Of a stretch of DNA of 24,257 bases, positions 491 to 24,257 are shown in pieces. Position 1 is the stretch's first letter; each line of letters begins with the position of its first letter. Position numbers and translations under genes: made by a program. Below the pieces are notes generated by a model. It was not told the origin of the DNA, did not search any database, and saw only the letters and a list, made by a program, of their open reading frames with translations. Source of the DNA: Promethearchaeota archaeon (GTDB lineage Archaea; Asgardarchaeota; Lokiarchaeia; Sigyniarchaeales; SOKP01). Location of the stretch: contig JBHLLU010000058.1 in NCBI GenBank assembly GCA_048938895.1, forward strand, positions 1 to 24,257, in the 5' to 3' direction.

Positions 491-3043
491 ATGAGTAAAG
501 TATCAGAATTGAATCTACCACCAGATGAAATTACGAAACAGGCCTTTGGACTTCGAAAAAATAATGAACATATCATATTGTGGCTTTTGAAGAACAATGA
601 AAGTGTAGAATGGGCGCATTTTTTGGAGGATCCTATTAGTATTCCTCAATCTACACTATCAAATTATTTAAAAGATCTTCAAGATGAAGGTTATATTGAG
701 AAAGTGAGAAGGGGGGTATATAAAATCACTTCTCGGGGTGAAACGCGATATAATGAATTATCGCAGACGAAAGATAAGAAGCGAAGTTTAAATTATCCAC
801 CTAAGGCGATAACAAGTAAAAGGGAATATGAGCATTGGATTTTATGGATGGCTTATAATAATAACTTTTTGAAATGGTCAGATTTCCTGGAGGAACCATT
901 AGCAATAAATCAATCTTCATTATCAAAAAGCATTAAGTCATTACTGAATAGGGAGGCTATAAGGAAAAACGATGATAAGGAGTATCGAATCACTCGAATC
1001 GGCAAGGCTGAATATGCTCGTATGTTGAGGACGTATGATTTAGACCGTCAGTCAATTCTTAATGAAGAAAGCAAGAGGATTGGTGAGATAACAAAAAAAA
1101 CGATAGATTTTTTTGAAAAATATGACATTACAAATTCTGATATAAAATTCCGATTTTTAAATAATGTACTAACTCTACCTTTTGAGAAATTAAAAGGGTC
1201 ACTTGATACAGAAGAGCAATTTAATAAAATCCTACTATATCTTTCAATGAATCATCCCAATCAGTATCCTGCATATATTTCAACTAATGAATTTTCAGAA
1301 AGATATAACATTAACAAATTAGACCTTGAATTTAACATTCGGAAAATTATTGAAAAAGATGTCTATCCTACAAAATTCTTTAAAATAGAGACAGGTAAGG
1401 ATAAATTATATTATTTTCAAGCGAATGAGAAGCTTGAGAAGGTCTTAAGTGCAATTACTGAGGATTATATTACTAAATTTACCTATTTAAATAAGCTATA
1501 TGAAAGTAGTTCTAGAGAAACACTTACCTTAACATTGGAATCTACAGTTGATGCGATATTGAATGAAATATGTGAAAGTCTATTTAATGAAGAACTAAAA
1601 GACTCACTGAGAGAATTTCTACCTGATTATATAAACTATTTAGCCTATAAGATGGAGACGCAAAAGAGATTGGAAGAAATTACAGATAAATTAGAAGGAA
1701 CAATTTGGCAGGAGTTTCAATATTATAGTGCTACGAATGAAACTCCCAAGAATTTAGATGAAAGTCAGGAGAATTATTACCTTTCACCAAACATATTCGA
1801 CATTTTGGATGAATCCTATATAATTCCAGAAATAGAATCCGCAGTTCAGGAAACAAAGAAAAGATTTAAAGATAAAATCGAATGGAAGGAAGCACTAGGT
1901 TATGTGAATTCGAAAATAGAGAGTGGTTTAGAACATAAAGAGTTTAAGTTATTTAAAGCAACTGTTCTCTGTCGCATTAATAAGTATACAGAAGCAATAA
2001 AATTAATTGAGGAGGAAATAGATTATGAACAATATCGAGATGACGAGGGAATATATTTAACTTCTTCTTTTATTCTTGTCTATTCGTATACTTCCTTAGG
2101 AACTGTTAATGAGGCGCTTGAAATTATTGATGAAATGTTTGAGACTTATCCTGATCATCCAATTTCACTTGCTGCAAAAGCTATAGTTTATGGATATAGT
2201 ATGATTTACGATTTTGATGTTGGTGAGGTAAACAATGATTATGTTTTAGATTTAATCGATGAAGTCATCAGAGCTGATTCTAGCATTTTGAATAAAGCAA
2301 GATATTATCAATTTAAGTCAACTATTTTGGAACAAATGAAAAAGGATGAGGAAGCTTTAGATGAAATTGAAATCGCTATGCAACTTACTGAAGATCTTGT
2401 TGAACTATACTACAGTAAATCAAAAATTCTTGCAGAGTTAGGGAGATATGATGAAGCAATGGAGGTCCTGGATGAAACTATGATACGATATCCTGACAAC
2501 CGTAAGCAGTTATTAATGCAAAAAGCTTATGTTTACAAGATGCAAGGTGATTACCAGTCTGGTTTAGATATAATTACTCAGCTTACAAAAAATTATCCAA
2601 AAGAAGTAGATTTTTACAATAATAAAGCCTATTGGCATGTATACATTTATAATCAGAAGAAGGAAATGGGAATAGAGGATGAAGAAAATAAGAAATCAGC
2701 TCTAGGAGATATAAAATTTCTAACTGAGAAAGTTCCAAACGAGGGAAATTATTTTGATTCATATGGTGAAATACTTCTGATAATTGGTGAGTATAAAGAT
2801 GCTATTAAAATGTATGAGAAAGCAATAAAAATCGAACCAAACGGTTGGTTTGTTCCAGCATCTTATTTAGGCCTTGGTAAATGTCACCAAAAACTTGGAA
2901 ATTATGAAGAGGCAGTGAAGAACCTTCAAAAAGCTCGAAAGATCGTAAGATATTGTTTCTGTCATATCAAACATAAAAAAGAGTGGATTGAAGAGATCGA
3001 ATACCATTTAAACGAAGTTAAAGAATTAATGGAAAAACCGTAG
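491..3043 (+). CDS. Tandem winged-HTH + TPR-repeat protein, putative transcriptional regulator
   Basis: Two mutually similar wHTH units (HIILWLLKNN..W.HFLEDP.SI.QSTLS..L..L..Y.IT..G and HWILWMAYNN..W.DFLEEP.AI.QSSLS..I..L..Y.IT..G), perhaps a third near aa 245-310. The C-terminal half has TPR patterns (e.g. LAELGRYDEAMEVLD, YLGLGKCHQKLGNYEEAVKNLQKA). Confidence 0.85.
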   Translation: MSKVSELNLPPDEITKQAFGLRKNNEHIILWLLKNNESVEWAHFLEDPISIPQSTLSNYLKDLQDEGYIEKVRRGVYKITSRGETRYNELSQTKDKKRSLNYPPKAITSKREYEHWILWMAYNNNFLKWSDFLEEPLAINQSSLSKSIKSLLNREAIRKNDDKEYRITRIGKAEYARMLRTYDLDRQSILNEESKRIGEITKKTIDFFEKYDITNSDIKFRFLNNVLTLPFEKLKGSLDTEEQFNKILLYLSMNHPNQYPAYISTNEFSERYNINKLDLEFNIRKIIEKDVYPTKFFKIETGKDKLYYFQANEKLEKVLSAITEDYITKFTYLNKLYESSSRETLTLTLESTVDAILNEICESLFNEELKDSLREFLPDYINYLAYKMETQKRLEEITDKLEGTIWQEFQYYSATNETPKNLDESQENYYLSPNIFDILDESYIIPEIESAVQETKKRFKDKIEWKEALGYVNSKIESGLEHKEFKLFKATVLCRINKYTEAIKLIEEEIDYEQYRDDEGIYLTSSFILVYSYTSLGTVNEALEIIDEMFETYPDHPISLAAKAIVYGYSMIYDFDVGEVNNDYVLDLIDEVIRADSSILNKARYYQFKSTILEQMKKDEEALDEIEIAMQLTEDLVELYYSKSKILAELGRYDEAMEVLDETMIRYPDNRKQLLMQKAYVYKMQGDYQSGLDIITQLTKNYPKEVDFYNNKAYWHVYIYNQKKEMGIEDEENKKSALGDIKFLTEKVPNEGNYFDSYGEILLIIGEYKDAIKMYEKAIKIEPNGWFVPASYLGLGKCHQKLGNYEEAVKNLQKARKIVRYCFCHIKHKKEWIEEIEYHLNEVKELMEKP

Positions 3044-12803: not shown

Positions 12804-13373
12804 TCAAGTTAGTGTTAAATTATTTCGTCCAGTTTTAGTCAAAATTTCTTGTACTAAGTATCTGAATATTAATGGAATGTTCTCCCCGGTTTTTGCAGAA
12901 CACTCTATATAATCAAAAAATTTATAAGAGCTCATAAATCTTAAGGCTTCCTCTTTTGAACAAACTCTTTCCTGTTCGAGATCCAATTTGTTTCCCACTA
13001 AAATAAATGGGACAATTCTTGAAACTTTTTGAAATTCAACTATCCAATTATTTAACTTATCTAAACTTTTCATACTTGTTAGGTCAAACATAAAAACTGC
13101 ACCTGATGACCCTCTAGCATAAGAGGGGATAAGAAACATAAAATTTTGCTGACCACCAAAATCCCAGATTTGAAGTGTAATTTTCCCATTTACAAGTTCA
13201 AGAAATTTTATATGAATAGTTGCACCTAATGTGGCTTGTATATTTTCATGAAATTCATTTGTAAGATACCGATCAACTAATGAGGTTTTACCAACTCCTG
13301 CATTTCCAAAAACACAGATTTTAAAAGCCAATTCTATAGATCCTTGCTCTAAATTTTCGCTGTTCCTTAACAT
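12804..13373 (-). CDS. Rab-like small GTPase (Ras superfamily)
   Basis: G1 GNAGVGKT, G2 ATLG, G3 WDFGGQ, G4 NKLD, G5 SAK; no C-terminal prenylation cysteines. Confidence 0.93.
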   Translation of the reverse strand: MLRNSENLEQGSIELAFKICVFGNAGVGKTSLVDRYLTNEFHENIQATLGATIHIKFLELVNGKITLQIWDFGGQQNFMFLIPSYARGSSGAVFMFDLTSMKSLDKLNNWIVEFQKVSRIVPFILVGNKLDLEQERVCSKEEALRFMSSYKFFDYIECSAKTGENIPLIFRYLVQEILTKTGRNNLTLT

Positions 13374-15440: not shown

Positions 15441-15980
15441 TTAGTCACCTAACCTATCATTTTTAATTAAAGTGGTAATAATAGCATTAATCTCTGCCCT
15501 AGATCGAACTTTCATATCTTGCTGAAGACTTTCAAGAATTTTTTTTTCGTTATATCCTTTTTTATAGAATTCCTTAAACTTTTCTACACCTTCTTCATTT
15601 AAAAGTACGTATCTTCTATTTAAATATACAATTAACCATTTCTTCTTTTTTTGATTTTTGGATAATGAAGATAGTGTCTTTCTAATATCATCTACAGGTC
15701 GATTTAATTTTTCAGCGACTTCCATATCACTTATTATTAGATATTGTTGCATAAATCTTAGAATTCTCCTCTTCGAAGAGAGAGTAATTAAGTAATACAC
15801 GATATATATACAGAAAAAAGAACCAGCTAGCAAAACACCTATTAGTTGATTAAAGATGAAAATTAAAAGGATGACTCCTAAAATAAGATAGAAAAAAATT
15901 TTTTTAATAATCTCAATTAATTTTGAATTAGAATTGGAATTCTCAACCACATCTTTCAAGTCGGAGTTAATATTAGGCAC
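15441..15980 (-). CDS. Two-TM membrane protein with cytoplasmic wHTH-like domain
   Basis: TM hairpin followed by ILRFM..ISDMEVAEKLNRPVDDIRKTLSSL and a beta hairpin; GTG start 13 nt after the upstream stop. Confidence 0.65.
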   Translation of the reverse strand: MPNINSDLKDVVENSNSNSKLIEIIKKIFFYLILGVILLIFIFNQLIGVLLAGSFFCIYIVYYLITLSSKRRILRFMQQYLIISDMEVAEKLNRPVDDIRKTLSSLSKNQKKKKWLIVYLNRRYVLLNEEGVEKFKEFYKKGYNEKKILESLQQDMKVRSRAEINAIITTLIKNDRLGD

Positions 15981-15993
15981 CTAACATTCTTAA

Positions 15994-18039
15994 CTACATA
16001 ATTGATTTAAGAATTTGTTTCTGACTTTCTGAACCTTTTCCTTTATCTTTAGGATTTTTCAAGTTTTTGATTGCAGACTCAATTGTTTCAAGTTTAATTG
16101 AATATTTCTCAAATAATTCCGTAAAACTGTTTATATCAATATCATTATTTTCATACAATATTTTTAATTGTTTTAAGGTTCGACCAATTCCTGCTTTATT
16201 ATTTTTTAATTCTTCGATCTTATTGGAGTTAATTGTAATTTCTGACATTAAGTTTTTGTAACGTAAATAGGCATCAAAGTTTAAATCAGATTGTTTATAT
16301 TTTGTAAGAAAGTTAGTAGTTCTTGGAACAAAGGGAGCAAGGTTTTCTGGAATTATGATCAAGGGTTCTGGATCTTGTATCTCTAAAGCCTGTGCATCAG
16401 AAATTATCTCAACATCATTTTCGATTATATTATTGTTTACAATAGATAAATTAGTCCGTAGGCTTTCTTTTTCCATATCATTGACATCCTCAAATGTGTT
16501 TAACATTGTTTCCCATATTTCCTCAGCTTTCATATAATAGTAGTTTGCTTTCTTCTGTAAATCTTCGATTTTATCTTTATTTTCATGTTCAGGTGAAATT
16601 TTTAAAAGATACTTTGCTTTTAAGTGACATGCTCTTCCAATGTCATAATTATATTGAGCTTTAAATTGAAATTCTTTTTTCTTAGTATACTTTCTTAGAA
16701 ATGCTAGTCTTTTAGTTAGGGCACTTAAGCCTGCAGACAAATTTGCTGCCATCGAGAAATTACCCTTTTTTTCTTCGCTAATAGTGGCTAAATTCTGAGC
16801 AAGTATTCGAGCTTCTTCTGAATTCAATTCAAGATTATCAACTGTTAATGCAATTCCTTTATCTTCTTGCCGAGTACAAGCAGCACTAAAATACGCTGCA
16901 GTTTTAAACATTTTACTGCATTCAACCATTGCTATTATTGCTTTTTCCCAGGAATTTTCTTCTTCAAATTTAGTAGAAAGGTAGGAATATGCTTTTGCTG
17001 AAATCCATAGTACCCTAGCACACTCAAAAATTAAATCCCATATTTTAATTTCGCTTTTTGCTATAGGGTCATAAAATAATGGAGTTATTTCTAATTCTTT
17101 AAAGATCTTTATTTGGCTTTGAGTTTTATAATTAACATTAAGGATTTTTATATATTCTAAAATATTGTTGAGTTCTGAGAAGGAAAAATCTTCATTACGT
17201 TCTAAAATAGTTTCCAACTTCTTAATGCTGAAATGGTAGAAACGGATCCTTTGCATTGTTGCTGGTGGGAAAAATGTTTGCAATTCAGGGGATTTTTCTG
17301 TATCTACTTTAACTAAATTTGCTTTTACCTCCTTTGCTTCTACTTCCTTTCTCTCTGATGGTTTTTTAGGGACTTTAATATCTATAATTGGTTTTACAAG
17401 AGGTTTAATGCTAATAGATGGTTTCTTTATCGGTTTATAAACAGGAAGAGGTTCTTCAACTTGAGTTTCTACATTTTGCTTGATTGGCGTAAATGGCTCT
17501 AATTTCTGCAGAGAACTCTTGGCGTTAAATTTTACAAATCCTAAAGGTTGAGATTGATCATTTACCTTCAAACTTGCGGTTCTACTAGCCATTTCTTCGT
17601 TCCTCATACTTTCTAAATACTTCTTTGCTATCTGAATATACTTTTCTGCTTTTGCAGTACCTATATCATTATGTTTTGATAACTCCTCAATGCTTAAAGA
17701 TGCAATTTTTTTTATGGAACTAATGGGGATTCTTTTTTTATCAGTATTAGTTGATTCAGTCTTAGTTGATTCAGTGTTAGTTTTTACTGATTTTGTGGTT
17801 TCATGTGCAGTTCCTTTGTTAATTATGTTATATACTTTTGATCTTGCATCAATCCGTTGAATATGCTTATTTGCAAACTGGATATAGGCTCTGGCTGCCG
17901 AAACTTTGATACCATCAATAACTAATAAGTCTTCTATACTTGAAGATGCTAGTTTTTCTATGGAATCAATTCCTATTTCTTTTAACTTTTGAGCGGTCCT
18001 TTTCCCAATACTTTGAGAGACGTTTAATATGGATGTCAT
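15994..18039 (-). CDS. Multidomain protein: N-terminal HhH modules, Pro/Lys linker, Bro1-like helical domain, C-terminal steadiness-box-like hairpin
   Basis: IGKRTAQKLKEIGIDSIEKLA..DLLVIDGI is an HhH module, with a partial repeat at aa 105-142. The CDS is secure; the Bro1 and SB calls are by-eye inference. Confidence 0.7.
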   Translation of the reverse strand: MTSILNVSQSIGKRTAQKLKEIGIDSIEKLASSSIEDLLVIDGIKVSAARAYIQFANKHIQRIDARSKVYNIINKGTAHETTKSVKTNTESTKTESTNTDKKRIPISSIKKIASLSIEELSKHNDIGTAKAEKYIQIAKKYLESMRNEEMASRTASLKVNDQSQPLGFVKFNAKSSLQKLEPFTPIKQNVETQVEEPLPVYKPIKKPSISIKPLVKPIIDIKVPKKPSERKEVEAKEVKANLVKVDTEKSPELQTFFPPATMQRIRFYHFSIKKLETILERNEDFSFSELNNILEYIKILNVNYKTQSQIKIFKELEITPLFYDPIAKSEIKIWDLIFECARVLWISAKAYSYLSTKFEEENSWEKAIIAMVECSKMFKTAAYFSAACTRQEDKGIALTVDNLELNSEEARILAQNLATISEEKKGNFSMAANLSAGLSALTKRLAFLRKYTKKKEFQFKAQYNYDIGRACHLKAKYLLKISPEHENKDKIEDLQKKANYYYMKAEEIWETMLNTFEDVNDMEKESLRTNLSIVNNNIIENDVEIISDAQALEIQDPEPLIIIPENLAPFVPRTTNFLTKYKQSDLNFDAYLRYKNLMSEITINSNKIEELKNNKAGIGRTLKQLKILYENNDIDINSFTELFEKYSIKLETIESAIKNLKNPKDKGKGSESQKQILKSIM

Positions 18040-18233
18040 ATGTACCTATAAATTATAATTCAATTTTTTATATAAACCTTAAGCATCATATTCTGATACA
18101 TAAGAGTATTATTTTCTTGGGAAAAAAAGGAAAATGTAAAAAATTTAAGCAATAACGAATAATTATTTCATGGTACTTCAATGACATATTGTAAATTCAT
18201 TAGAATAAAAATTACTTATATCCAAATTAATAA

Positions 18234-19205
18234 ATGAATGAGAAAGAAGAATTTAATATTGACAATTATCTACAGGATGCAAATAAAAAAGTTAAAGAAC
18301 TTGAACTTGAGAAGGAACAGCTGAATAGTAAAATCAAGAATTTTATTATTAGTTTTCAGAGTTTTGATTCTGAGATCAACAACTCTTTTATTGATGCTAG
18401 AGAGTTTTATTCTAAAAAACGAGATGAATATAATAGTAAATTAGCAGAATTAAAAAGAAAGAGATACGAATATGAACGTCATTGGAGCGATCTTACCAAA
18501 AAAATCGAAAACTTCCCAAAACCTCAATTAAATGAAAATTCTTTAGTTTTGATGGATTACACTAAAAAAGCTCTTGAAGATATTGGGAATCAGCTAAGGG
18601 TTATGAACCAAAAACTTGAAGAACAAATTTTAGGTATCGATGAAGAAAATGAAATCATTGAAAAGATTAGGAAATTCGAGTCAGAGAAAAAAGAGAAAAT
18701 GAATAACTTAGCTGTTTTAGAAAAGAAACAACTAATAGAGATACAGAGAAGTGATTACTATAATACACAAAAACAAATTCAAAAAATTGAGAATGATTTA
18801 ACATATATATACGACGATTTACTAAAATTTCTAAATAAAAGATTAATGACTCACAAGAAAACCCTTAATTTATATAAAAAAGCTAAGAAATTTGAACAAA
18901 TTAAGAAAGAAATTGAAGAAGAATTAATAGAAAATAAAACTACTGCGGAGGGATATCATCAACTTTTCTTAAAGTTAATGAATCTCAATCAAAAAGTATT
19001 ATTGGATGAATTACCAAATAAGTTAACAAGTAGAGCACGACCAAAGGAAATTAAAAGACCTGATGTAAGGGCTATTCTCAAAAGGAAAAAGAAGTACAAA
19101 AAACTCGAACAAAAAAAGTTACAAGTAGCATTAGAGAAACAAAAAGCTGGGAAAAAATTAGATTTTTATGAATATCAACTCATCCTAAAGCATTCTAAGA
19201 GATAA
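18234..19205 (+). CDS. Archaeal long coiled-coil protein (resembles COG1340-type)
   Basis: Heptad-rich throughout; KRDEYN and C-terminal K.GKKL...EYQLI recalled as typical of this family. Confidence 0.7.
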   Translation: MNEKEEFNIDNYLQDANKKVKELELEKEQLNSKIKNFIISFQSFDSEINNSFIDAREFYSKKRDEYNSKLAELKRKRYEYERHWSDLTKKIENFPKPQLNENSLVLMDYTKKALEDIGNQLRVMNQKLEEQILGIDEENEIIEKIRKFESEKKEKMNNLAVLEKKQLIEIQRSDYYNTQKQIQKIENDLTYIYDDLLKFLNKRLMTHKKTLNLYKKAKKFEQIKKEIEEELIENKTTAEGYHQLFLKLMNLNQKVLLDELPNKLTSRARPKEIKRPDVRAILKRKKKYKKLEQKKLQVALEKQKAGKKLDFYEYQLILKHSKR

Positions 19206-19237: not shown

Positions 19238-22200
19238 TTAAAAAACAAAAAATATCGCAGTAACAGATAATGTGAGAAAAGCTGCAACGATTACTTTCTT
19301 TAACTTACTTTTTTCTTTCTTATTTAATTTCTCATAATATCGACTTTTTGTTAATTTCACGGTAATAGGAATCATTGTTAAAACACCCGCGGTCGAGGTA
19401 ATAAAACCAATTGGATTTGATATAATTGCACTAGGTGGTTGATATTTAACCACTGTAATATCTTGGTAATTTATATTTCCAAGTGAGTCCATTGAGTAGA
19501 ATCGGATTGTAATGATAGATCCTCTAGTTAAGTTATCCCAAACGTTTTGCCATAATATTTCATCAATTTTCCCATAGATCCGGACCCCGCTAGTACCTGT
19601 AAATTGTATGGAGGACTCAGTTCCTATAATAGTATACCAACAGCTATCTATATCATTTTCGTCAAAAAGAGTAAGTTCAAAATATGGAGAATTTCTATCG
19701 ATCTTCTGATTTGTAGTTGGTAAATGTATTGTGATATTAGGTCCAATAGTATCTTTCAACAAAGTTATCATATTTAGATTATTTAGATTCCCTAATGTGT
19801 CATTAGCATAAAATTCTAATAAAAATGCTCCTTGAGGTAAAAGCATCCATATGGAAGAGTTAAGATTTTGAGTGATGTTATCTGTGATATAAATTCTTCT
19901 CGAATTAACGATATACCATATTTCGTCTAAATTAGGTTCAATAATTGTAAGATTAATAAATGGCGCCGAAGCATAATATGTTTGACTAAGAGGAGAATTT
20001 ACGATAATTAATGGTGGATCTGGGTCTTTATTGATGATTACCTCATCGTATCCGATTTTCCCAATTGAATCATTGATATAAAACCTAATTGTAACGCTTT
20101 CATATCCAAAATCACTCCATGCTGCTTGGTTTATTGTTCCACTTAATCCAGAAAAAGTATAATTCGTCAATCCATTATCTAACGTATACCAGGTGTCCTG
20201 AATATCAGAACCAGATTTATAAATTATAAAATTGGGGGCATCAATTCCGAATATTTCGTCATGTCCTGGAGAAGTGATTGTAATAACAGGTGCAAAAATA
20301 TTTTTTCTTACAGTAATATCGCTGTAACCTAAATTTCCTGCTAGATCATTTGCATTAAACCTAATAGTTACAGTTCCATTACCAAATTTATCCCATTCTG
20401 TTTGGTTGATTGTTCCAATAGTTCCTGTAAATATAAAATTCTGCGATTCACCTAGTAAAGTATACCAAGTAGTATTTAGATGAGCTTCTAAGATTGAAAT
20501 CTCAAAATCTGGAGCAACCGCTCCAAATAATTCATTTGGTTGAGGGAGACTAATATTTATCTCCGGTACATAAGTATCTTTAATCAAAGCGAGTGTTATG
20601 GAATTATTTATATTCCCAAGAGAATCCTCTGCAATAATCTGTAGTACAAACATTCCTTCTGGTATCAGAGACCAAATAAAAGGATTCATAAGCACTTCAG
20701 TGTTGTTTGGAATGTATTGTAAATAAGGAAGGAATTCGTATCTAATTGAATCCAGGTTAACATCAAAAGCTGTGATATTAAGAACTGGCCTTGAATTCCA
20801 ATATGTATTGTTTAAAGGTGAATTAATAGTAATTAAGGGTGCTAGCGTATCTTTCAATATAGTAAGTGTATAAGTATTATTTAAATTTCCAGCAGAATCA
20901 TTTGCATAAATCGAAACTTGAAATTCTCCTTGGTCTAACTCATCCCACATAGTTTGATCAAAAGCTTCAGGACCCAATTCTAAAATAAATTTAGTACCCA
21001 TTACAGAATACCATATTGTATCAAGATTTACATCGGATGCTAAAATGTTCATGAAAGGAGGATCAGAATAGTATGTATTGTTAAGTGGGGCATTAATAGT
21101 TATAAAGGGAGTTATTGTATCCTTATTAAGAGTTCTATTTACAGCTGAGCTAGTATAGCCAAAACTATCATTTGCATAAAATTCAACAGTAAAAATGCCA
21201 TCAGTTATACTATCCCATAAGGAAGATTCCAAGATTTGTTCTGAATTGTTAGCCAACTCTATTGAAGTCGTCCCTATTCTATACCAAATGGTATGGAGAT
21301 TAGGATCATCTGAAATTACTCGAAATATAGGTGGTGAATTATGATATGAATTTTCCTCTGGTAAAATTATTTCAACAATGGGAGCAAGAGTATCCTTATA
21401 TATGGTAATAAATGTATTGTTTGGATGACCGAAACTATCGAAAGCTGAAATACTTACTGTGAAAGGTCCTTGTGGGAGTGAATCCCAAATACCTTGATCA
21501 AGAAGTTCTTCTGTATTATTTTCTAACCAAAAAGTACTTCCCATTACTGTGTAAGTAAGGGAGTTAAAATTGGGGTCAAGAACAGTTATGTTAATTGGTG
21601 GTGGAGAATTATAATAAGCTTGATCAGAGGGAGTGTTTATTATTAATTGGGGCGCAAGAGTGTCTTTATAGAATGTCAAATTAAGAGGATCGTTTATGTA
21701 TCCTAGCATATCTTCAGCAAATATTTCAATCACAAACTTTCCTTGAGGAAGACTATCCCAAATAGAACTATCAAGAGTAATATCTGAATCGTTTGGTAAT
21801 GTTATATTTGTTTCCCCCACTCTATACCATATCCTCAGAAGGTTTGGTTCATATACTGATATGTGAAAACTTGGTTCCTCAGCACAATATAAACCATCCC
21901 CAGAGGGATTTATGTATGTAATCGTTATTTCAGGGGGATCAGGATCTTTTCTGATGGTAACCTCATCAAATCCTATTTTACCAAGGGAATCATTTATATA
22001 GAAGAAAATGGTGACACTCTCAAAATCAAACAAGTCCCACGCGTCTTGATCTATCGTACCACTTAAGCTATAGAACGTATAATTAGTTAATCCACCATCT
22101 AACGTATACCAAGTTGTATTTAATGCAACTCCAGATTTATAAATTGTAAAATTCGGAGCATCAACACCAAATAAATCATTATCATAGGGAGAAACTATAT

Positions 22201-24257
22201 TTATTACTGGAGCGAATATATTTTTTCGAACAGTAATCGCCCTAAAACCAAGATTGCCTAAGGTATCATTTGCATAAAACATGATCGACACCGTTCCATT
22301 ACCAAAATTGTCCCATGCAGATTGATTTATTAGACCACTTAACCCTGAAAAGGTATAATTAGTTATACCATCATCTAAAGTATACCAAGTCTGGTCTAAA
22401 TTATCTTCAATTATTGAAATAAAAAAATTTGGTGCAATATCTCCATATAATCCATTCGGTTTCGGACTATTAATCGAAATAGAAGGGCTTCTAACATCCT
22501 TATAGAGCAGTAATTTATACATATCATTTAAATTTCCAGCAGAATCGTTTGCATAAAATTGTATCTCAAATTCACCTTCTATTGACAAAAGATCCCAAAT
22601 GGCAGTATCTAATGGTTGATTAGTATTATTTGTTAGAACAACAATAGTAGTTCCTACTCGATACCATAAAGTATGAAGATAAGAATCTATAACAGTAGCT
22701 CTAATAGTTGGTGGTAATTTCCAATAGGTGTTATTATATGGGGAATTTATAACTAAATTTGGTGTTAATATATCTTTGTAGAGTGTTAGTGTGAAAGTAT
22801 CATTAATATGACCAAAAGTGTCATTCGCATAAAAGTGAACTTGAAAATCTCCTTCTCCAGGGAGAGAATTCCAAATTGATAAATTAAATTCTTCCAGGGT
22901 ATTATTTGATATTGAAACGTTAATATTGTTTACATTATACCAAATAGAATCAAAATTTGGGTCAAAAGCGGAAAGATTAAAAGATGGAGGTGAATTCCAG
23001 TAGGTATTATTTAGGGGTGTATTTATAGTTAATAGTGGTGCCATCGTGTCTTTGTATAGTGTTAAACTTAATTCAACGTAATGATCTAATTCATCATAAC
23101 ATGAGAATAAAATATGAAACTCCCCTTGATCTAAGGCATTCCATCTATTTGCCTCTAATTGAACTTCTGAGTTATTATCTAATGGATATGTATATCCAGA
23201 TATACTGTAAAATAGAAAACACTTAGTTAAATCAAAAATAGTTATATTAATTCGAGGGCGTATATTCCAGTATGTATTATTAACTGGAGTATTAAACACT
23301 AATATCGGATCCATTGTATCTTTCGTAACAGTCACGCTATTAGAACCTACATTCCCTGCGTCATCCTCAGCATAAAAAATGATTCCTACCAACCCATCTG
23401 GTTGACTATCCCACTCGGTGGAATTGATAGTGCCTGTTTCTGATATGATATAGATAGAAGTTCCAGTATTAAGCGTATACCAATATCGGTATAAATTCAC
23501 TTCAGAAATGGAAATGTCATAAACAGGCGCTTCTTCATATGCTCCTATACCTGGAGCTGTAATTGTGATCACAGGGTCCACTGTATCTTTGGTAACAGTC
23601 ATGCTATCAGAACCTATGTGTCCTGCATCATCCTCAGCATAAAAGAAAATCTCCACTGTCCCCTCTGGTTGGTTATCCCACTCAGTTGAATTGATGGTGC
23701 CTGTCTCTGATGTAATATAAAAAGGTGAACCGCCATTAAGCGTATACCAATATTGAAACAAGTTTGCTTCAGTAATGGTAATATCATAATTTGGTGCCCC
23801 ATCATACACCCCCACTACAGGAGCTGTAATTGCGATCACAGGATCCACCGTATCTTTGGTAGCAGTTACGCTATCAGATCCTATATGTCCCGCATCGTCC
23901 TCAGCGTAAAAAATGATTTCAACCAAGCCATCTGGTTGACTATCCCACTCGGTGGAATTGATAGTACCTGTTTCTGATATGATATAGATAGACGGACCAC
24001 CATTAAGCGTATACCAATATTGAAACAAGTTTGCTTCAGTAATAGAAATGTCATAACTAGGTGGTCCATCATACACCCCCACTACAGGAGCTGTAATTGC
24101 GATCACAGGATCCACCGTATCTTTGGTAACAGTCACGCTATCAGATCCTATATGTCCCGCATCGTCCTCAGCGTAAAAAATGATTTCAACCAAGCCATCT
24201 GGTTGGCTAGCCCACTCAGTGGAATTAATGTTACCTGTCTCCGATGTGATATAAATA
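19238..24257 (-). CDS. Giant surface/extracellular protein with about 18 tandem ~90-aa Ig-like repeats and a C-terminal two-TM anchor; 5' end outside the window
   Basis: The frame stays open beyond 24193 to the window edge (IYITSETGNINSTEWASQPDGLVE). Repeat pattern KDT..P.I.I.SP..WY..W..F.I.FYAND..G; many N-x-S/T sequons; two hydrophobic helices flank a basic loop at the C-terminus. Confidence 0.9.
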   Translation of the reverse strand, partial: IYITSETGNINSTEWASQPDGLVEIIFYAEDDAGHIGSDSVTVTKDTVDPVIAITAPVVGVYDGPPSYDISITEANLFQYWYTLNGGPSIYIISETGTINSTEWDSQPDGLVEIIFYAEDDAGHIGSDSVTATKDTVDPVIAITAPVVGVYDGAPNYDITITEANLFQYWYTLNGGSPFYITSETGTINSTEWDNQPEGTVEIFFYAEDDAGHIGSDSMTVTKDTVDPVITITAPGIGAYEEAPVYDISISEVNLYRYWYTLNTGTSIYIISETGTINSTEWDSQPDGLVGIIFYAEDDAGNVGSNSVTVTKDTMDPILVFNTPVNNTYWNIRPRINITIFDLTKCFLFYSISGYTYPLDNNSEVQLEANRWNALDQGEFHILFSCYDELDHYVELSLTLYKDTMAPLLTINTPLNNTYWNSPPSFNLSAFDPNFDSIWYNVNNINVSISNNTLEEFNLSIWNSLPGEGDFQVHFYANDTFGHINDTFTLTLYKDILTPNLVINSPYNNTYWKLPPTIRATVIDSYLHTLWYRVGTTIVVLTNNTNQPLDTAIWDLLSIEGEFEIQFYANDSAGNLNDMYKLLLYKDVRSPSISINSPKPNGLYGDIAPNFFISIIEDNLDQTWYTLDDGITNYTFSGLSGLINQSAWDNFGNGTVSIMFYANDTLGNLGFRAITVRKNIFAPVINIVSPYDNDLFGVDAPNFTIYKSGVALNTTWYTLDGGLTNYTFYSLSGTIDQDAWDLFDFESVTIFFYINDSLGKIGFDEVTIRKDPDPPEITITYINPSGDGLYCAEEPSFHISVYEPNLLRIWYRVGETNITLPNDSDITLDSSIWDSLPQGKFVIEIFAEDMLGYINDPLNLTFYKDTLAPQLIINTPSDQAYYNSPPPINITVLDPNFNSLTYTVMGSTFWLENNTEELLDQGIWDSLPQGPFTVSISAFDSFGHPNNTFITIYKDTLAPIVEIILPEENSYHNSPPIFRVISDDPNLHTIWYRIGTTSIELANNSEQILESSLWDSITDGIFTVEFYANDSFGYTSSAVNRTLNKDTITPFITINAPLNNTYYSDPPFMNILASDVNLDTIWYSVMGTKFILELGPEAFDQTMWDELDQGEFQVSIYANDSAGNLNNTYTLTILKDTLAPLITINSPLNNTYWNSRPVLNITAFDVNLDSIRYEFLPYLQYIPNNTEVLMNPFIWSLIPEGMFVLQIIAEDSLGNINNSITLALIKDTYVPEINISLPQPNELFGAVAPDFEISILEAHLNTTWYTLLGESQNFIFTGTIGTINQTEWDKFGNGTVTIRFNANDLAGNLGYSDITVRKNIFAPVITITSPGHDEIFGIDAPNFIIYKSGSDIQDTWYTLDNGLTNYTFSGLSGTINQAAWSDFGYESVTIRFYINDSIGKIGYDEVIINKDPDPPLIIVNSPLSQTYYASAPFINLTIIEPNLDEIWYIVNSRRIYITDNITQNLNSSIWMLLPQGAFLLEFYANDTLGNLNNLNMITLLKDTIGPNITIHLPTTNQKIDRNSPYFELTLFDENDIDSCWYTIIGTESSIQFTGTSGVRIYGKIDEILWQNVWDNLTRGSIITIRFYSMDSLGNINYQDITVVKYQPPSAIISNPIGFITSTAGVLTMIPITVKLTKSRYYEKLNKKEKSKLKKVIVAAFLTLSVTAIFFVF
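23310..24257 (-). repeat. Near-identical 267-bp intragenic tandem repeat (about 3.5 copies visible)
   Basis: GGAGCTGTAATTG recurs at 23553, 23820 and 24087; ATCATACACCCCCACTACAGG at 23801 and 24068. Confidence 0.92.

Follow-up and report, generated by a model that had tools for sequence, protein, structure and literature searches.

To our knowledge, Bro1/ALIX is the only major route of entry into ESCRT-III that lacks an accepted archaeal counterpart. CdvA, an archaeal protein that binds both DNA and membrane, combines a PRC barrel with an ESCRT-III-binding peptide and holds neither a Bro1 fold nor helix-hairpin-helix (HhH) modules. In their 2024 survey, Makarova et al. (PMC10936438) describe CdvA as an archaeal recruiter of ESCRT-III, with a helical hairpin that resembles the steadiness box (SB), treat Asgard proteins ending in an SB as linked to ESCRT-I (section 6), and find Bro1 not identifiable in Asgard archaea. 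According to Hatano 2022, a Loki SB protein interacts with Vps28 and Vps22 in the yeast two-hybrid system. The supplements to both Eme et al. 2023 and a 2026 PNAS review contain rows labeled “Bro1”; those examined carry PF18097, the 38-position Vta1_C model, and comprise four proteins from other lineages, three of which are given with sequences of 75 to 154 amino acids (aa). Here, we describe a conserved Asgard protein family with a Bro1-fold domain and a C-terminal hairpin of the SB type.

A conserved protein family in a Lokiarchaeales lineage

The window analyzed, 24,257 nucleotides (nt) of contig JBHLLU010000058.1, encodes on its minus strand, at 15994..18039, an ATG-initiated open reading frame (ORF) of 681 aa that is composed of an HhH head, a basic linker, a Bro1-fold domain, and an SB-type tail, and whose database label reads helix-hairpin-helix protein only. 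The initial annotation had quoted six strings from this ORF, and both the ORF and all six strings (residues 320 to 354, 377 to 384, 412 to 415, 430 to 435, 540 to 545, and 617 to 649) were located where it had placed them. Scoring of 8,000 candidates returned 401 family proteins at an E value of ≤1e-3, the best 120 of which are 54 to 95% identical to the ORF over 81 to 100% (mostly 96 to 100%) of its length. In a 48-member family alignment, the quoted stretches fall in the blocks that are richest in invariant columns. Since the ORF is thus a member of a conserved family, the quoted strings do not represent chance resemblances. A TATA-like octamer located 30 to 37 nt upstream of the ATG (18069..18076, minus strand), read from the sequence only, is a candidate promoter element.

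The family is present in 127 of the 134 genomes of one Lokiarchaeales family. Our own queries did not detect it in 14 genomes of the sister family f3 (including three single-contig assemblies), a family to which the cultured Lokiarchaeales may belong, nor in the majority of the other Asgard families, and it is therefore not a core part of ESCRT. Distant relatives with the Bro1 fold occur in two other Asgard families, f18 and f28. Within the family, long forms can be distinguished from short paralogues, and seven of the eight long paralogues tested carry the HhH head. The family may already be drawn in the 2024 survey (PMC10936438; Fig. S4 and 6B) as a “TPR + SB” protein, and three of its motif strings were not found in the searched portion of the Eme 2023 supplements. 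A viral origin was considered and rejected, given that no relative was detected among viral contigs (0 of 34 pattern matches). The same holds for a role in defense: PADLOC matched neither the ORF nor its predicted membrane partner, its coiled-coil neighbor, or a short paralogue.

The central domain adopts a predicted Bro1 fold

Residues 255 to 555 (16375..17277, minus strand) are predicted to fold into a helical solenoid that contains a beta hairpin (residues 321 to 332), at a pLDDT of mostly 70 to 94. In a Foldseek search with the predicted core, Bro1 domains (from ALIX, Bro1, HD-PTP, and BROX) made up every one of the 18 rows listed through rank 21, with E values from 3.4e-5 to 4.2e-3, and the first fold other than Bro1 appeared only at 1.1e-2. 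VIA alignment of residues 255 to 574 gave Z scores of 18.3 to 20.2 against 16 ALIX, Bro1, HD-PTP, and BROX entries, compared to 11.9 for the next fold; the superpositions on Bro1 entries cover 266 to 285 residues at a root mean square deviation of 4.0 to 5.3 Å and an identity of 9 to 15%. The Bro1-like domain claimed in the initial annotation is thus supported at the level of the fold (Foldseek E value of about 3e-5; VIA Z of about 20 against 11.9). A generic TPR/SNAP solenoid, named there as the contrary outcome, is not what the comparison returned, with TPR, SNAP, and 14-3-3 types reaching about half the Bro1 Z score. Of the Bro1 hallmarks listed in the initial annotation, the first three (W..D, E.A.iLyN, and F..AAGAF) were recovered by an HMM alignment to HD-PTP that by itself has an E value of 0.27.

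The solenoid is followed by an extended, proline-rich strap (residues 556 to 582; 16294..16374, minus strand) that is nearly invariant from D556 to L578. Columns D556 to P572 are invariant in the 48-member alignment, P559, P564, E565, and P572 remain so even when relatives at 22 to 26% identity are included (alignment A2), and the corresponding columns P305, P310, E311, N312, and P318 are invariant in alignment A4. The VIA alignments to Bro1 domains extend to model residues 571 to 575, i.e., into this strap, where pLDDT is below 50 from residue 565 on. The invariant residues of the family, among them R411, Q415, L434, G437 to S439, and R444, cluster in helices 400 to 425 and 428 to 448. These may correspond to the CHMP4-binding helices of Bro1 domains, in which a conserved concave patch accepts the C-terminal helix of CHMP4/Snf7.

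The BRO1 model PF03097 had no match on the ORF at an E value of ≤1, its cut-off of 35.1 bits not being reached; it was not among the families listed for the 48 members, of which at most one could match, and a search of the genome at an E value of ≤10 returned a match elsewhere, not at the ORF. In a distant family member, PF03097 is the top Pfam match (E value of 4.9e-4; 19.5 bits, below the cut-off). Three of the six PDB sequences matched by family profile A5 are HD-PTP Bro1 chains, with collinear alignment, and the best PDB match of this profile is an engineered TPR protein (E value of 1.6e-5). ALIX_LYPXL_bnd was not among the matches listed for either the ORF or the 48 members; with no V domain and no proline-rich region, the protein is not an ALIX orthologue.

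The profiles of the ORF family and of the f18 relative match each other in both directions. In all four genomes with f18 loci, the gene lies in a row consisting of an actin-like ATPase, an unknown protein, the Bro1-like–Zn-ribbon protein, an Arf/Ras-like GTPase, and an SF2 helicase, from which ESCRT genes are absent. The gene after the f28 relative encodes a histone-fold protein.

The C-terminal tail is related to the steadiness box through an intermediate profile

The conserved C-terminal helices span residues 583 to 669 (16033..16293, minus strand), of which residues 604 to 669 make up the SB-type hairpin. Aligned by hhalign to the SB of the Asgard Znr_PH_CC_SB proteins, the tail alignment reached a probability of 91% (E value of 1.1e-6; 66 columns), as opposed to 0.2 to 0.8% for three control alignments. 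The SB profile of Znr_PH_CC_SB in turn matches yeast Vps23 at E values of 1.2e-4 to 4.3e-4 and TSG101 at 0.019. This chain from the tail to Znr_PH_CC_SB and on to Vps23 supports, at the level of sequence profiles, probable homology of the tail with the accepted steadiness box, and the hairpin assigned to this class in the initial annotation stands on such transitive evidence. In direct comparisons, SHOCT, CdvA, GvpG, and Vps23_core gave equally weak Pfam matches on related tails, Vps23_core (PF09454) had no match on the ORF and was missing from the families listed when 34 tails were scanned, and the tail profile alone found no Vps23 among PDB chains at an E value of ≤10. A merged profile reached Vps23/TSG101 chains at E values of 0.23 to 0.96, with Vps23 itself at 0.23 to 0.73, ranked behind GCN4 chimeras and CdvA. 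The tail helices are predicted at a pLDDT below 50. No similarity to Vps28 of the same genome was detectable with the tail profile (hhalign, 0.2%), and the single sequence P0190 scored 4.5%.

The N-terminal head carries HhH modules

HhH modules at the N terminus had also been claimed, and Pfam HHH_5 (PF14520) indeed matches the ORF with an E value of 2.7e-8 and 34.6 bits, above the cut-off of 27, as well as all 48 family members. The match defines an (HhH)2 module at residues 1 to 75 (17815..18039, minus strand), which superimposes on the RAD51 N-terminal domain with a VIA Z of 9.9 to 10 over 64 to 77 residues (21 to 25% identity). A second HHH_5 stretch marks a degenerate HhH-type helical module at residues 105 to 150 (17590..17727, minus strand); the predicted model places helices at residues 106 to 158 with a pLDDT of 71 to 81, and the block is conserved in the 48-member alignment. 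The lysine-rich linker that follows (residues 151 to 254; 17278..17589, minus strand) is disordered (pLDDT below 50) and poorly conserved, varying in length among the members of that alignment and containing repeats in some. Its net charge is +7, and that of residues 1 to 254 as a whole is +15 (pI 9.7).

A membrane protein is the conserved neighbor

Directly downstream of the ORF, after a gap of 13 nt, lies a gene for a protein of 179 aa (15441..15980, minus strand) whose residues 19 to 69 form a hydrophobic stretch, enough for roughly two membrane helices, and whose tail is basic (pI 9.95). A homologue with two transmembrane segments is found 3′ of 28 of the 39 long forms and of 0 of the 44 short paralogues, starting −3 to +132 nt from the stop codon of the long form and overlapping it by 4 nt in 11 of the 28 cases. 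As judged from gene arrangement, the ORF is co-transcribed with this two-helix membrane protein in a predicted operon. The partner has no relative in Pfam, NCBIfam, or PDB (nothing below an E value of 0.78 among PDB sequences). A relationship to Vps25-like or EAP30 proteins was rejected, hhalign against those of the same genome giving 1.8% and 0.4%, respectively. A second paralogue of the partner in this genome has no Bro1-like neighbor. As a side observation, a sequence pattern in the partner may be read as a winged helix.

Upstream, the divergent neighbor (18234..19205, plus strand) encodes a coiled-coil protein of 323 aa from an archaeal DUF7121-type family, with tblastn matches in 17 of 76 loci and an atlas score of 0.95 to DUF7121-bearing clusters. 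ESCRT families were found neither among the scanned ORFs of the window nor among the 15 ORFs around one short paralogue, whose neighborhood shows conserved housekeeping synteny only. Gene context therefore offers no direct backing for ESCRT-III binding, ESCRT-I assembly, or a link to nucleic acid. Elsewhere, the genome encodes an ESCRT-III protein of the Snf7 type, in which two C-terminal motifs are conserved, as well as Vps4, Vps25-like, EAP30, and Vps28 proteins, and further SB-ended proteins, namely, Znr_PH_CC_SB and a coiled-coil protein of 520 aa. No clear covariation between the ESCRT-III tail motifs and the presence of the family was seen, since the ESCRT-III of f3 genomes, too, has these general motifs in its tail.

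Possible roles of the family

The combination of HhH head, Bro1 fold, and SB-type tail is supported; as to function, which we infer, there is about an even chance that this modular scaffold from a Lokiarchaeales lineage is an accessory adaptor in the ESCRT network of Asgard archaea. Such an adaptor would pack its SB hairpin with the other proteins of its genome that end in an SB (Vps28, Znr_PH_CC_SB, and the 520-aa coiled-coil protein) and dock the C-terminal peptide of Snf7-type ESCRT-III on its Bro1-fold domain, while the membrane partner would keep the complex at the membrane and the basic HhH head would bind nucleic acid or another partner. Membrane remodeling could thereby be aimed at a DNA-associated site during division, segregation, or cargo loading. 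It is tempting to speculate further, though we consider it rather doubtful, that Asgard archaea had a working Bro1 branch for recruiting ESCRT, housed in one polypeptide in which Bro1 docks Snf7-type ESCRT-III, the SB plugs into an ESCRT-I-like headpiece, and the HhH head and membrane partner couple DNA, be it the chromosome at division or a nucleic acid cargo, to scission; Bro1 would then be pre-eukaryotic and have begun as a DNA-linked adaptor.

Alternatively, the protein might be a Bro1-fold/SB scaffold that handles DNA or chromosomes at the membrane, for instance in segregation or tethering, without contacting ESCRT-III. The Bro1 fold of Asgard archaea would then be a solenoid for docking peptides in general, which became linked to ESCRT-III later, in eukaryotes. 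We regard this as a tentative possibility. The recurrence of an HhH head among the long paralogues, the basic charge of the head, the actin-like/GTPase/helicase row of the f18 relative, the histone-fold gene after the f28 relative, and the fact that an ESCRT gene lies beside none of the annotated loci would all fit it; DNA binding by the head, however, is only putative. Moreover, the solved Bro1 domains listed among the structural matches presumably all bind ESCRT-III, several of the entries being CHMP4 or CHMP5 complexes by title. The SB-type tail likewise belongs to a class of module that has to date been associated with ESCRT-I-like proteins (Makarova 2024, PMC10936438, section 6).

Should the head bind protein and not nucleic acid, the ORF could regulate a transcription or repair factor while tethered to the membrane. 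HhH domains do bind protein in the C terminus of NusA and in the C-terminal domain of RNA polymerase alpha, and the NusA C-terminal repeat is weakly matched here (E value of 6.9e-6, below the cut-off), and RNA_pol_A_CTD matches some paralogues. Yet among structures, the head is matched best by the N-terminal domain of RAD51/RadA, and head and linker are strongly basic; neither point is decisive, and we judge this reading improbable. More improbable still is mere convergence, i.e., a generic TPR-like solenoid joined to a generic coiled-coil or SHOCT-like hairpin that share no evolutionary origin with Bro1 or with the steadiness box. A significant direct HMM match is indeed absent, the engineered TPR protein leads the PDB matches of profile A5, the related tails are equally weakly matched by four models, and middling Z scores are common for helical repeats. 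A Z of about 20 over some 275 of 320 residues, however, lies far above the 10 to 12 obtained for TPR, 14-3-3, and SRP68 folds, and the match takes in the beta hairpin and reaches the C-terminal strap. In addition, the top Pfam match of a distant member is BRO1, and the match between tail and SB profiles is specific relative to three controls.

The occurrence of a Bro1-fold domain and an ESCRT-I-type hairpin in one Asgard protein hints at a pre-eukaryotic Bro1 branch of ESCRT, and if a true Bro1 fold is fused to an ESCRT-I assembly hairpin, the origin of the module would move before eukaryogenesis. The narrow spread and the non-ESCRT neighborhoods matter equally, because the fold may originally have served a purpose other than recruiting ESCRT. 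The ORF also supplies a concrete protein pair for in vitro work.

Comparison with known systems

The head of the ORF finds its best structural and sequence match, over residues 1 to 77, in the N-terminal (HhH)2 domain of RadA/RAD51; whereas RadA/RAD51 continues into a recombinase core, the ORF has none, and its head is followed by the second, degenerate module. At the opposite end, 66 C-terminal residues can be aligned to the SB that Makarova et al. (2024, PMC10936438) describe for Znr_PH_CC_SB, but the hairpin follows a Bro1 fold in the ORF and a UEV/stalk or Zn-ribbon/PH region in ESCRT-I and Znr_PH_CC_SB proteins, respectively. The Pfam and PDB models of CdvA from TACK archaea also weakly match this class of tail. 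The f18 Bro1-like proteins share the core and the proline-rich strap with the ORF family, yet carry a Zn ribbon in place of the SB tail and lack the HhH modules. With the eukaryotic Bro1 domains of ALIX (2oew and 3c3o), yeast Bro1 (1zb1), HD-PTP (3rau, 5cru, and 5mk0), and BROX (3r9m and 3zxp), the ORF core has its fold in common over about 270 to 285 residues, and the order of conserved blocks in the family is collinear with HD-PTP in the HMM alignment. In the eukaryotic proteins ALIX and Bro1p, the Bro1 domain precedes a V domain and then a proline-rich region; in the ORF, only about 100 residues come after the Bro1 fold, which has HhH modules and an SB hairpin fused to it.

Architecture of a conserved helix-hairpin-helix family

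The open reading frame (ORF) at 15994-18039 (minus strand) begins with an ATG and runs for 681 codons, and the six strings quoted from it in the initial annotation lie at residues 320-354, 377-384, 412-415, 430-435, 540-545, and 617-649. Of 8,000 candidates scored, 401 proteins match it at E ≤ 1e-3; the best 120 relatives are 54 to 95% identical to it over 81 to 100% (mostly 96 to 100%) of its length, and, judged by sequence, it is a member of a well conserved family. These relatives, where named, are called “helix-hairpin-helix domain-containing protein” or “hypothetical protein” and come from Asgard-type metagenome bins. When 1.84 billion proteins were searched exhaustively with residues 255-681, no more than 55 representative clusters reached E ≤ 1e-3. 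In the alignment of 48 family members (A1), the blocks with the most invariant columns contain the quoted stretches.

An AlphaFold2 model built from A1 (mean pLDDT 64, pTM 0.49) has confident helical modules at residues 1-74 and 106-158, disorder at 76-103 and around 152-252, and a core, also confident (255-555; blocks averaging mostly 70 to 94), made of long helix pairs and a beta hairpin (321-332). From residue 565 onward the pLDDT falls below 50, yet five short helices are still modeled there. Residues 1-254 are basic, with a net charge of +15 and a pI of 9.7; the core, at pI 5.7, is acidic.

Three domains can be identified in this protein, beginning with the N-terminal helix-hairpin-helix (HhH) modules that had been read from the sequence. 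Pfam HHH_5 scores 34.6 bits against a cut-off of 27, in two stretches of which residues 11-49 are the better, and is matched in all 48 members; NCBIfam gave sub-threshold matches only, to the RadA N-terminus and the NusA C-terminal repeat. HHH_5 is present in seven of the eight long paralogues tested and absent from both short or distant paralogues tested (n = 2).

The core has a predicted Bro1 fold

A Foldseek search of the PDB with the model gave 14 matches at E ≤ 1e-3, and all 18 entries listed through rank 21 were Bro1 domains, including ALIX (2oew, E = 3.4e-5), yeast Bro1 (1zb1, 4.3e-5), HD-PTP, and BROX (up to 4.2e-3). Target-normalised TM scores were 0.41 to 0.52 for chains holding a Bro1 domain only and 0.29 for full-length ALIX (2oev), and the first non-Bro1 fold was a designed repeat protein (E = 1.1e-2). 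When VIA-align was run on the top 1,000 Foldseek chains, 16 Bro1-containing entries took the top ranks (Z 18.3 to 20.2, 266 to 285 residues aligned at 4.0 to 5.3 Å), pairing, for example, model residues 254-573 with ALIX 19-350. Since SRP68-RBD (Z 11.9), sNASP (10.9), and 14-3-3 proteins (about 10) rank below these entries, the modeled core is not the generic TPR/SNAP solenoid that the initial annotation had named as refuting its reading. The proposal of a Bro1-like domain thus holds at the level of the predicted fold, but not as a Pfam match: PF03097 was not matched on the ORF at E ≤ 1, and a search across the genome at E ≤ 10 hit a single unrelated place. PF03097 is also missing from the Pfam families listed for the 48 members (25 of 50); because every family with at least two members appears there, at most one of the 48 could match it.

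Traces of sequence similarity to Bro1 emerge with more distant relatives. For one member from Asgard family f28 (L100), PF03097 is the top Pfam match (E = 4.9e-4), its 19.5 bits falling short of the 35.1 cut-off. A more diverse profile of 17 sequences (A5) gave six matches to PDB sequences at E ≤ 10, the best being an engineered TPR protein and three being HD-PTP Bro1 chains (E = 0.27 to 0.29), with profile positions 68-146/162 aligned to HD-PTP 88-166/179. The proposed W..D, E.A.iLyN, and F..AAGAF correspondences recur in this HD-PTP alignment.

The tail is related to Asgard steadiness boxes

The C-terminal hairpin had been likened to the steadiness box (SB) of TSG101/Vps23. Neither Vps23_core nor SHOCT is among the Pfam families listed for 34 tails (A3), and the A3 profile retrieved no Vps23 chain from the PDB at E ≤ 10. 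Searches with the family profile A4, however, picked up roughly 55 final residues in unrelated proteins from other Asgard families (four of seven matches in five genomes, per-genome E 1.4e-6 to 2.3e-4). Of these four proteins, three combine N-terminal Zn ribbons (a single Cys pair only in L105) with a PH/GRAM-like middle part and a coiled coil; in L104 (252 aa), just the Zn ribbon and the coiled coil are present. The architecture of the three is that of the Znr_PH_CC_SB class, which the text of Makarova et al. 2024 (PMC10936438) describes as a likely Asgard ESCRT-I component. Profile A7, built from the tails of four proteins of this class, matched PDB chains of yeast Vps23 (E = 1.2e-4 to 4.3e-4), TSG101 (0.019), and Vps37B (0.38), and aligned with A3 at 91% probability (E = 1.1e-6, 66 columns); control alignments of A3 reached 0.16% (ESCRT-III), 0.8% (the partner protein described below), and 0.2% (the genome's own Vps28). 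The merged profile A8 was not significant against Vps23 (E = 0.23 to 0.73), with GCN4 chimeras and CdvA ranking higher, and Pfam matches of related tails to SHOCT, CdvA, GvpG, and Vps23_core are equally weak; an SB-CdvA similarity is itself reported by Makarova et al. 2024 (PMC10936438). The SB likeness is therefore upheld through the intermediate Asgard tails, but not by a direct match to Vps23 or Vps23_core. We conclude that the tail falls in the SB/CdvA hairpin class, closest to Asgard SBs, its fold having low confidence in the model.

Gene neighborhood and paralogues

The ORF forms an operon with a membrane protein gene: 13 nt downstream, a 179-aa ORF (15441-15980, minus strand) encodes a protein with one long hydrophobic stretch at residues 19-69, enough for about two membrane helices, and a tail that is basic; it has no relative in Pfam, NCBIfam, or the PDB. 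From 173 pattern matches, 120 of them encoding relatives, the best 80 were kept and 76 loci assembled. A partner homologue begins -3 to +132 nt past the stop in 28 of 39 long forms (at least 500 aa), overlapping by 4 nt in 11 of the 28, and follows none of 44 short forms (380 to 450 aa). Among the 11 long ORFs lacking it, four have less than 500 nt of contig left and the other seven lie in loci with a second long copy, which is followed by the partner in five cases; in L030 neither listed copy is. Tandem pairs of HhH-Bro1-like-SB genes, 0.2 to 1.4 kb apart, were seen in eight loci (L011, L019, L021, L023, L024, L025, L027, and L030), one copy directly preceding the partner in six, the partner lying about 0.4 kb downstream in L021 and directly following neither copy in L030.

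The same genome holds a 414-aa paralogue (contig C170, 51% identity) that lacks the HhH head. In a careful maximum-likelihood tree of 52 rows (44 of 84 ORFs after redundancy filtering plus eight others, long rows trimmed to the C-terminal 440 residues, midpoint root only), one branch with 100/100 support parts the 28 long from the 18 short rows.

On the other side, a 323-aa coiled-coil gene of DUF7121 type (18234-19205, plus strand; atlas score 0.95) is the divergent neighbor in 17 of 76 loci, frequently with the long form; the type is widespread in archaea. A Ras-family GTPase (12804-13373, minus strand) is encoded 2 kb past the partner gene, and in 34 loci Ras-like matches occur upstream of the short paralogue, at a distance of 4.5 to 7.7 kb. 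GTPases of this kind abound in Asgard genomes, and their presence near both gene forms may be chance. The window also encodes, at 19238-24256 (minus strand), a protein of more than 1,650 aa running off its end, with many repeats of about 90 to 100 aa, recurring WYTL.GG and FYA.D..GN motifs, and a hydrophobic anchor at its end, probably a surface protein; and, at 491-3043 (plus strand), an 850-aa protein in which an N-terminal region of winged-helix type (MarR/HTH_45) is combined with TPR repeats at the C-terminus. No ESCRT gene was found among the window ORFs scanned or around the one short paralogue locus annotated.

Distribution and the ESCRT parts of the same genome

The spread of the family is lineage-restricted and marked by duplication. 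Residues 255-681 matched 132 of 400 Asgard genomes at E ≤ 1e-5: 127 of 134 in the window's own family (f1), four of five in f28, and none in every other family, including f3 (0/14, three of these being single-contig genomes). Profile A4 reached 146 of 379 genomes, with weak extra matches outside f1 that are partly tail-only; of the proteins outside f1, those truly matching through the core are the one from f28 and an f18 protein of about 372 aa ending in a Zn ribbon. The latter occurs in 10 of 10 f18 genomes and matches f1 members in return (14/128, E = 1e-6 to 1e-9); source labels of its cluster are “Asgard group,” “Heimdallarchaeota,” and “Bathyarchaeia.” In all four f18 genomes with loci (L142, 7067-15127; L143, 2-7870; also L152 and L153), it sits in a row on one strand throughout: an actin-like ATPase (ALP_N/MreB-like_C), a 195- to 240-aa unknown protein, the Bro1-like-Zn-ribbon protein, an Arf/Ras-like GTPase, and an SF2 helicase of 1,370 to 1,395 aa. 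L142 also has JAB and RING genes close by, and no ESCRT gene was seen in the row. A histone-fold gene directly downstream of the f28 gene (L144, 10172-10468) may be a coincidence.

The window's genome has one detected Snf7-family gene (P0189; contig C75, L003 9631-10284), convergent with and one gene from a 678-aa Znr_PH_CC_SB gene (P0190; L003 6483-8519). The Snf7-type protein was found in 58 of 61 genomes searched including this one (57 of 60 others) and, in its C-terminal part, carries two motifs that are invariant: a stretch of the form P..P..DDL.Y and a terminal helix. The pair lies far from Vps4, a Vps25-like protein, and EAP30, which occupy the very start of contig C95, where any upstream ESCRT-III gene would be cut off; Vps28 is on C51, and an 806-aa ORF bearing Vps28-C on C85. 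Profile A8 picked out four proteins of this genome that end in an SB: the two Bro1-like paralogues, the Znr_PH_CC_SB protein, and a 520-aa acidic coiled-coil/disordered protein with an SB-like hairpin at its end (C1, 8324-9886; L157, 145-1707; E = 8.2e-6), a possible further headpiece partner. Hatano et al. 2022 report that, in yeast two-hybrid assays, a free-standing lokiarchaeal SB protein contacted both Vps28 and Vps22.

Proposed function and relation to known systems

The leading reading is that the protein works as an adaptor, in which the SB-type tail would join other SB hairpins, the Bro1-fold core would dock a tail motif of ESCRT-III, the 179-aa partner would anchor the complex, and the basic HhH head, by prediction, would bind nucleic acid. 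For this mechanism as a whole, with its putative binding steps, we hold the chances to be evenly balanced. Alternatively, the fold assignments would stand but ESCRT-III would play no part, and the protein would be a scaffold linked to DNA and membrane or to the cytoskeleton; the HhH heads of the long forms, the actin/GTPase/helicase row around the f18 gene, and the lack of ESCRT genes in the neighborhoods examined all favor this main rival, which we consider rather unlikely but a serious contender. Pure convergence of the core and tail resemblances seems very improbable, as it sits poorly with both a Z of about 20 to Bro1 domains and the specific tail-to-SB profile match.

Full-text literature searches found no paper on this HhH-Bro1-fold-SB family. 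Makarova et al. 2024 (PMC10936438) state in their text that Bro1/Alix orthologues are not identifiable in Asgard archaea, and “Bro1” and “ALIX” are absent from the three text supplements of that paper. Eme et al. 2023 state that Asgard Bro1 homologues exist. In the supplement rows labeled “Bro1” in that study and in a 2026 PNAS review (PMC10307638, PMC13037920), the accession is PF18097, and the rows comprise four proteins, from Heimdallarchaeaceae, Njordarchaeales (two), and Thorarchaeia, the three with sequence shown being 75 to 154 aa. Because PF18097 is Vta1_C, of 38 positions, the “Asgard Bro1” printed in these rows is not a BRO1-domain call. Compared with known domains, head residues 1-77 of the model align with the RAD51 N-terminal domain at Z 9.9 to 10 (64 to 77 residues, 21 to 25% identity), and Bro1 domains share 9 to 15% identity with the core.
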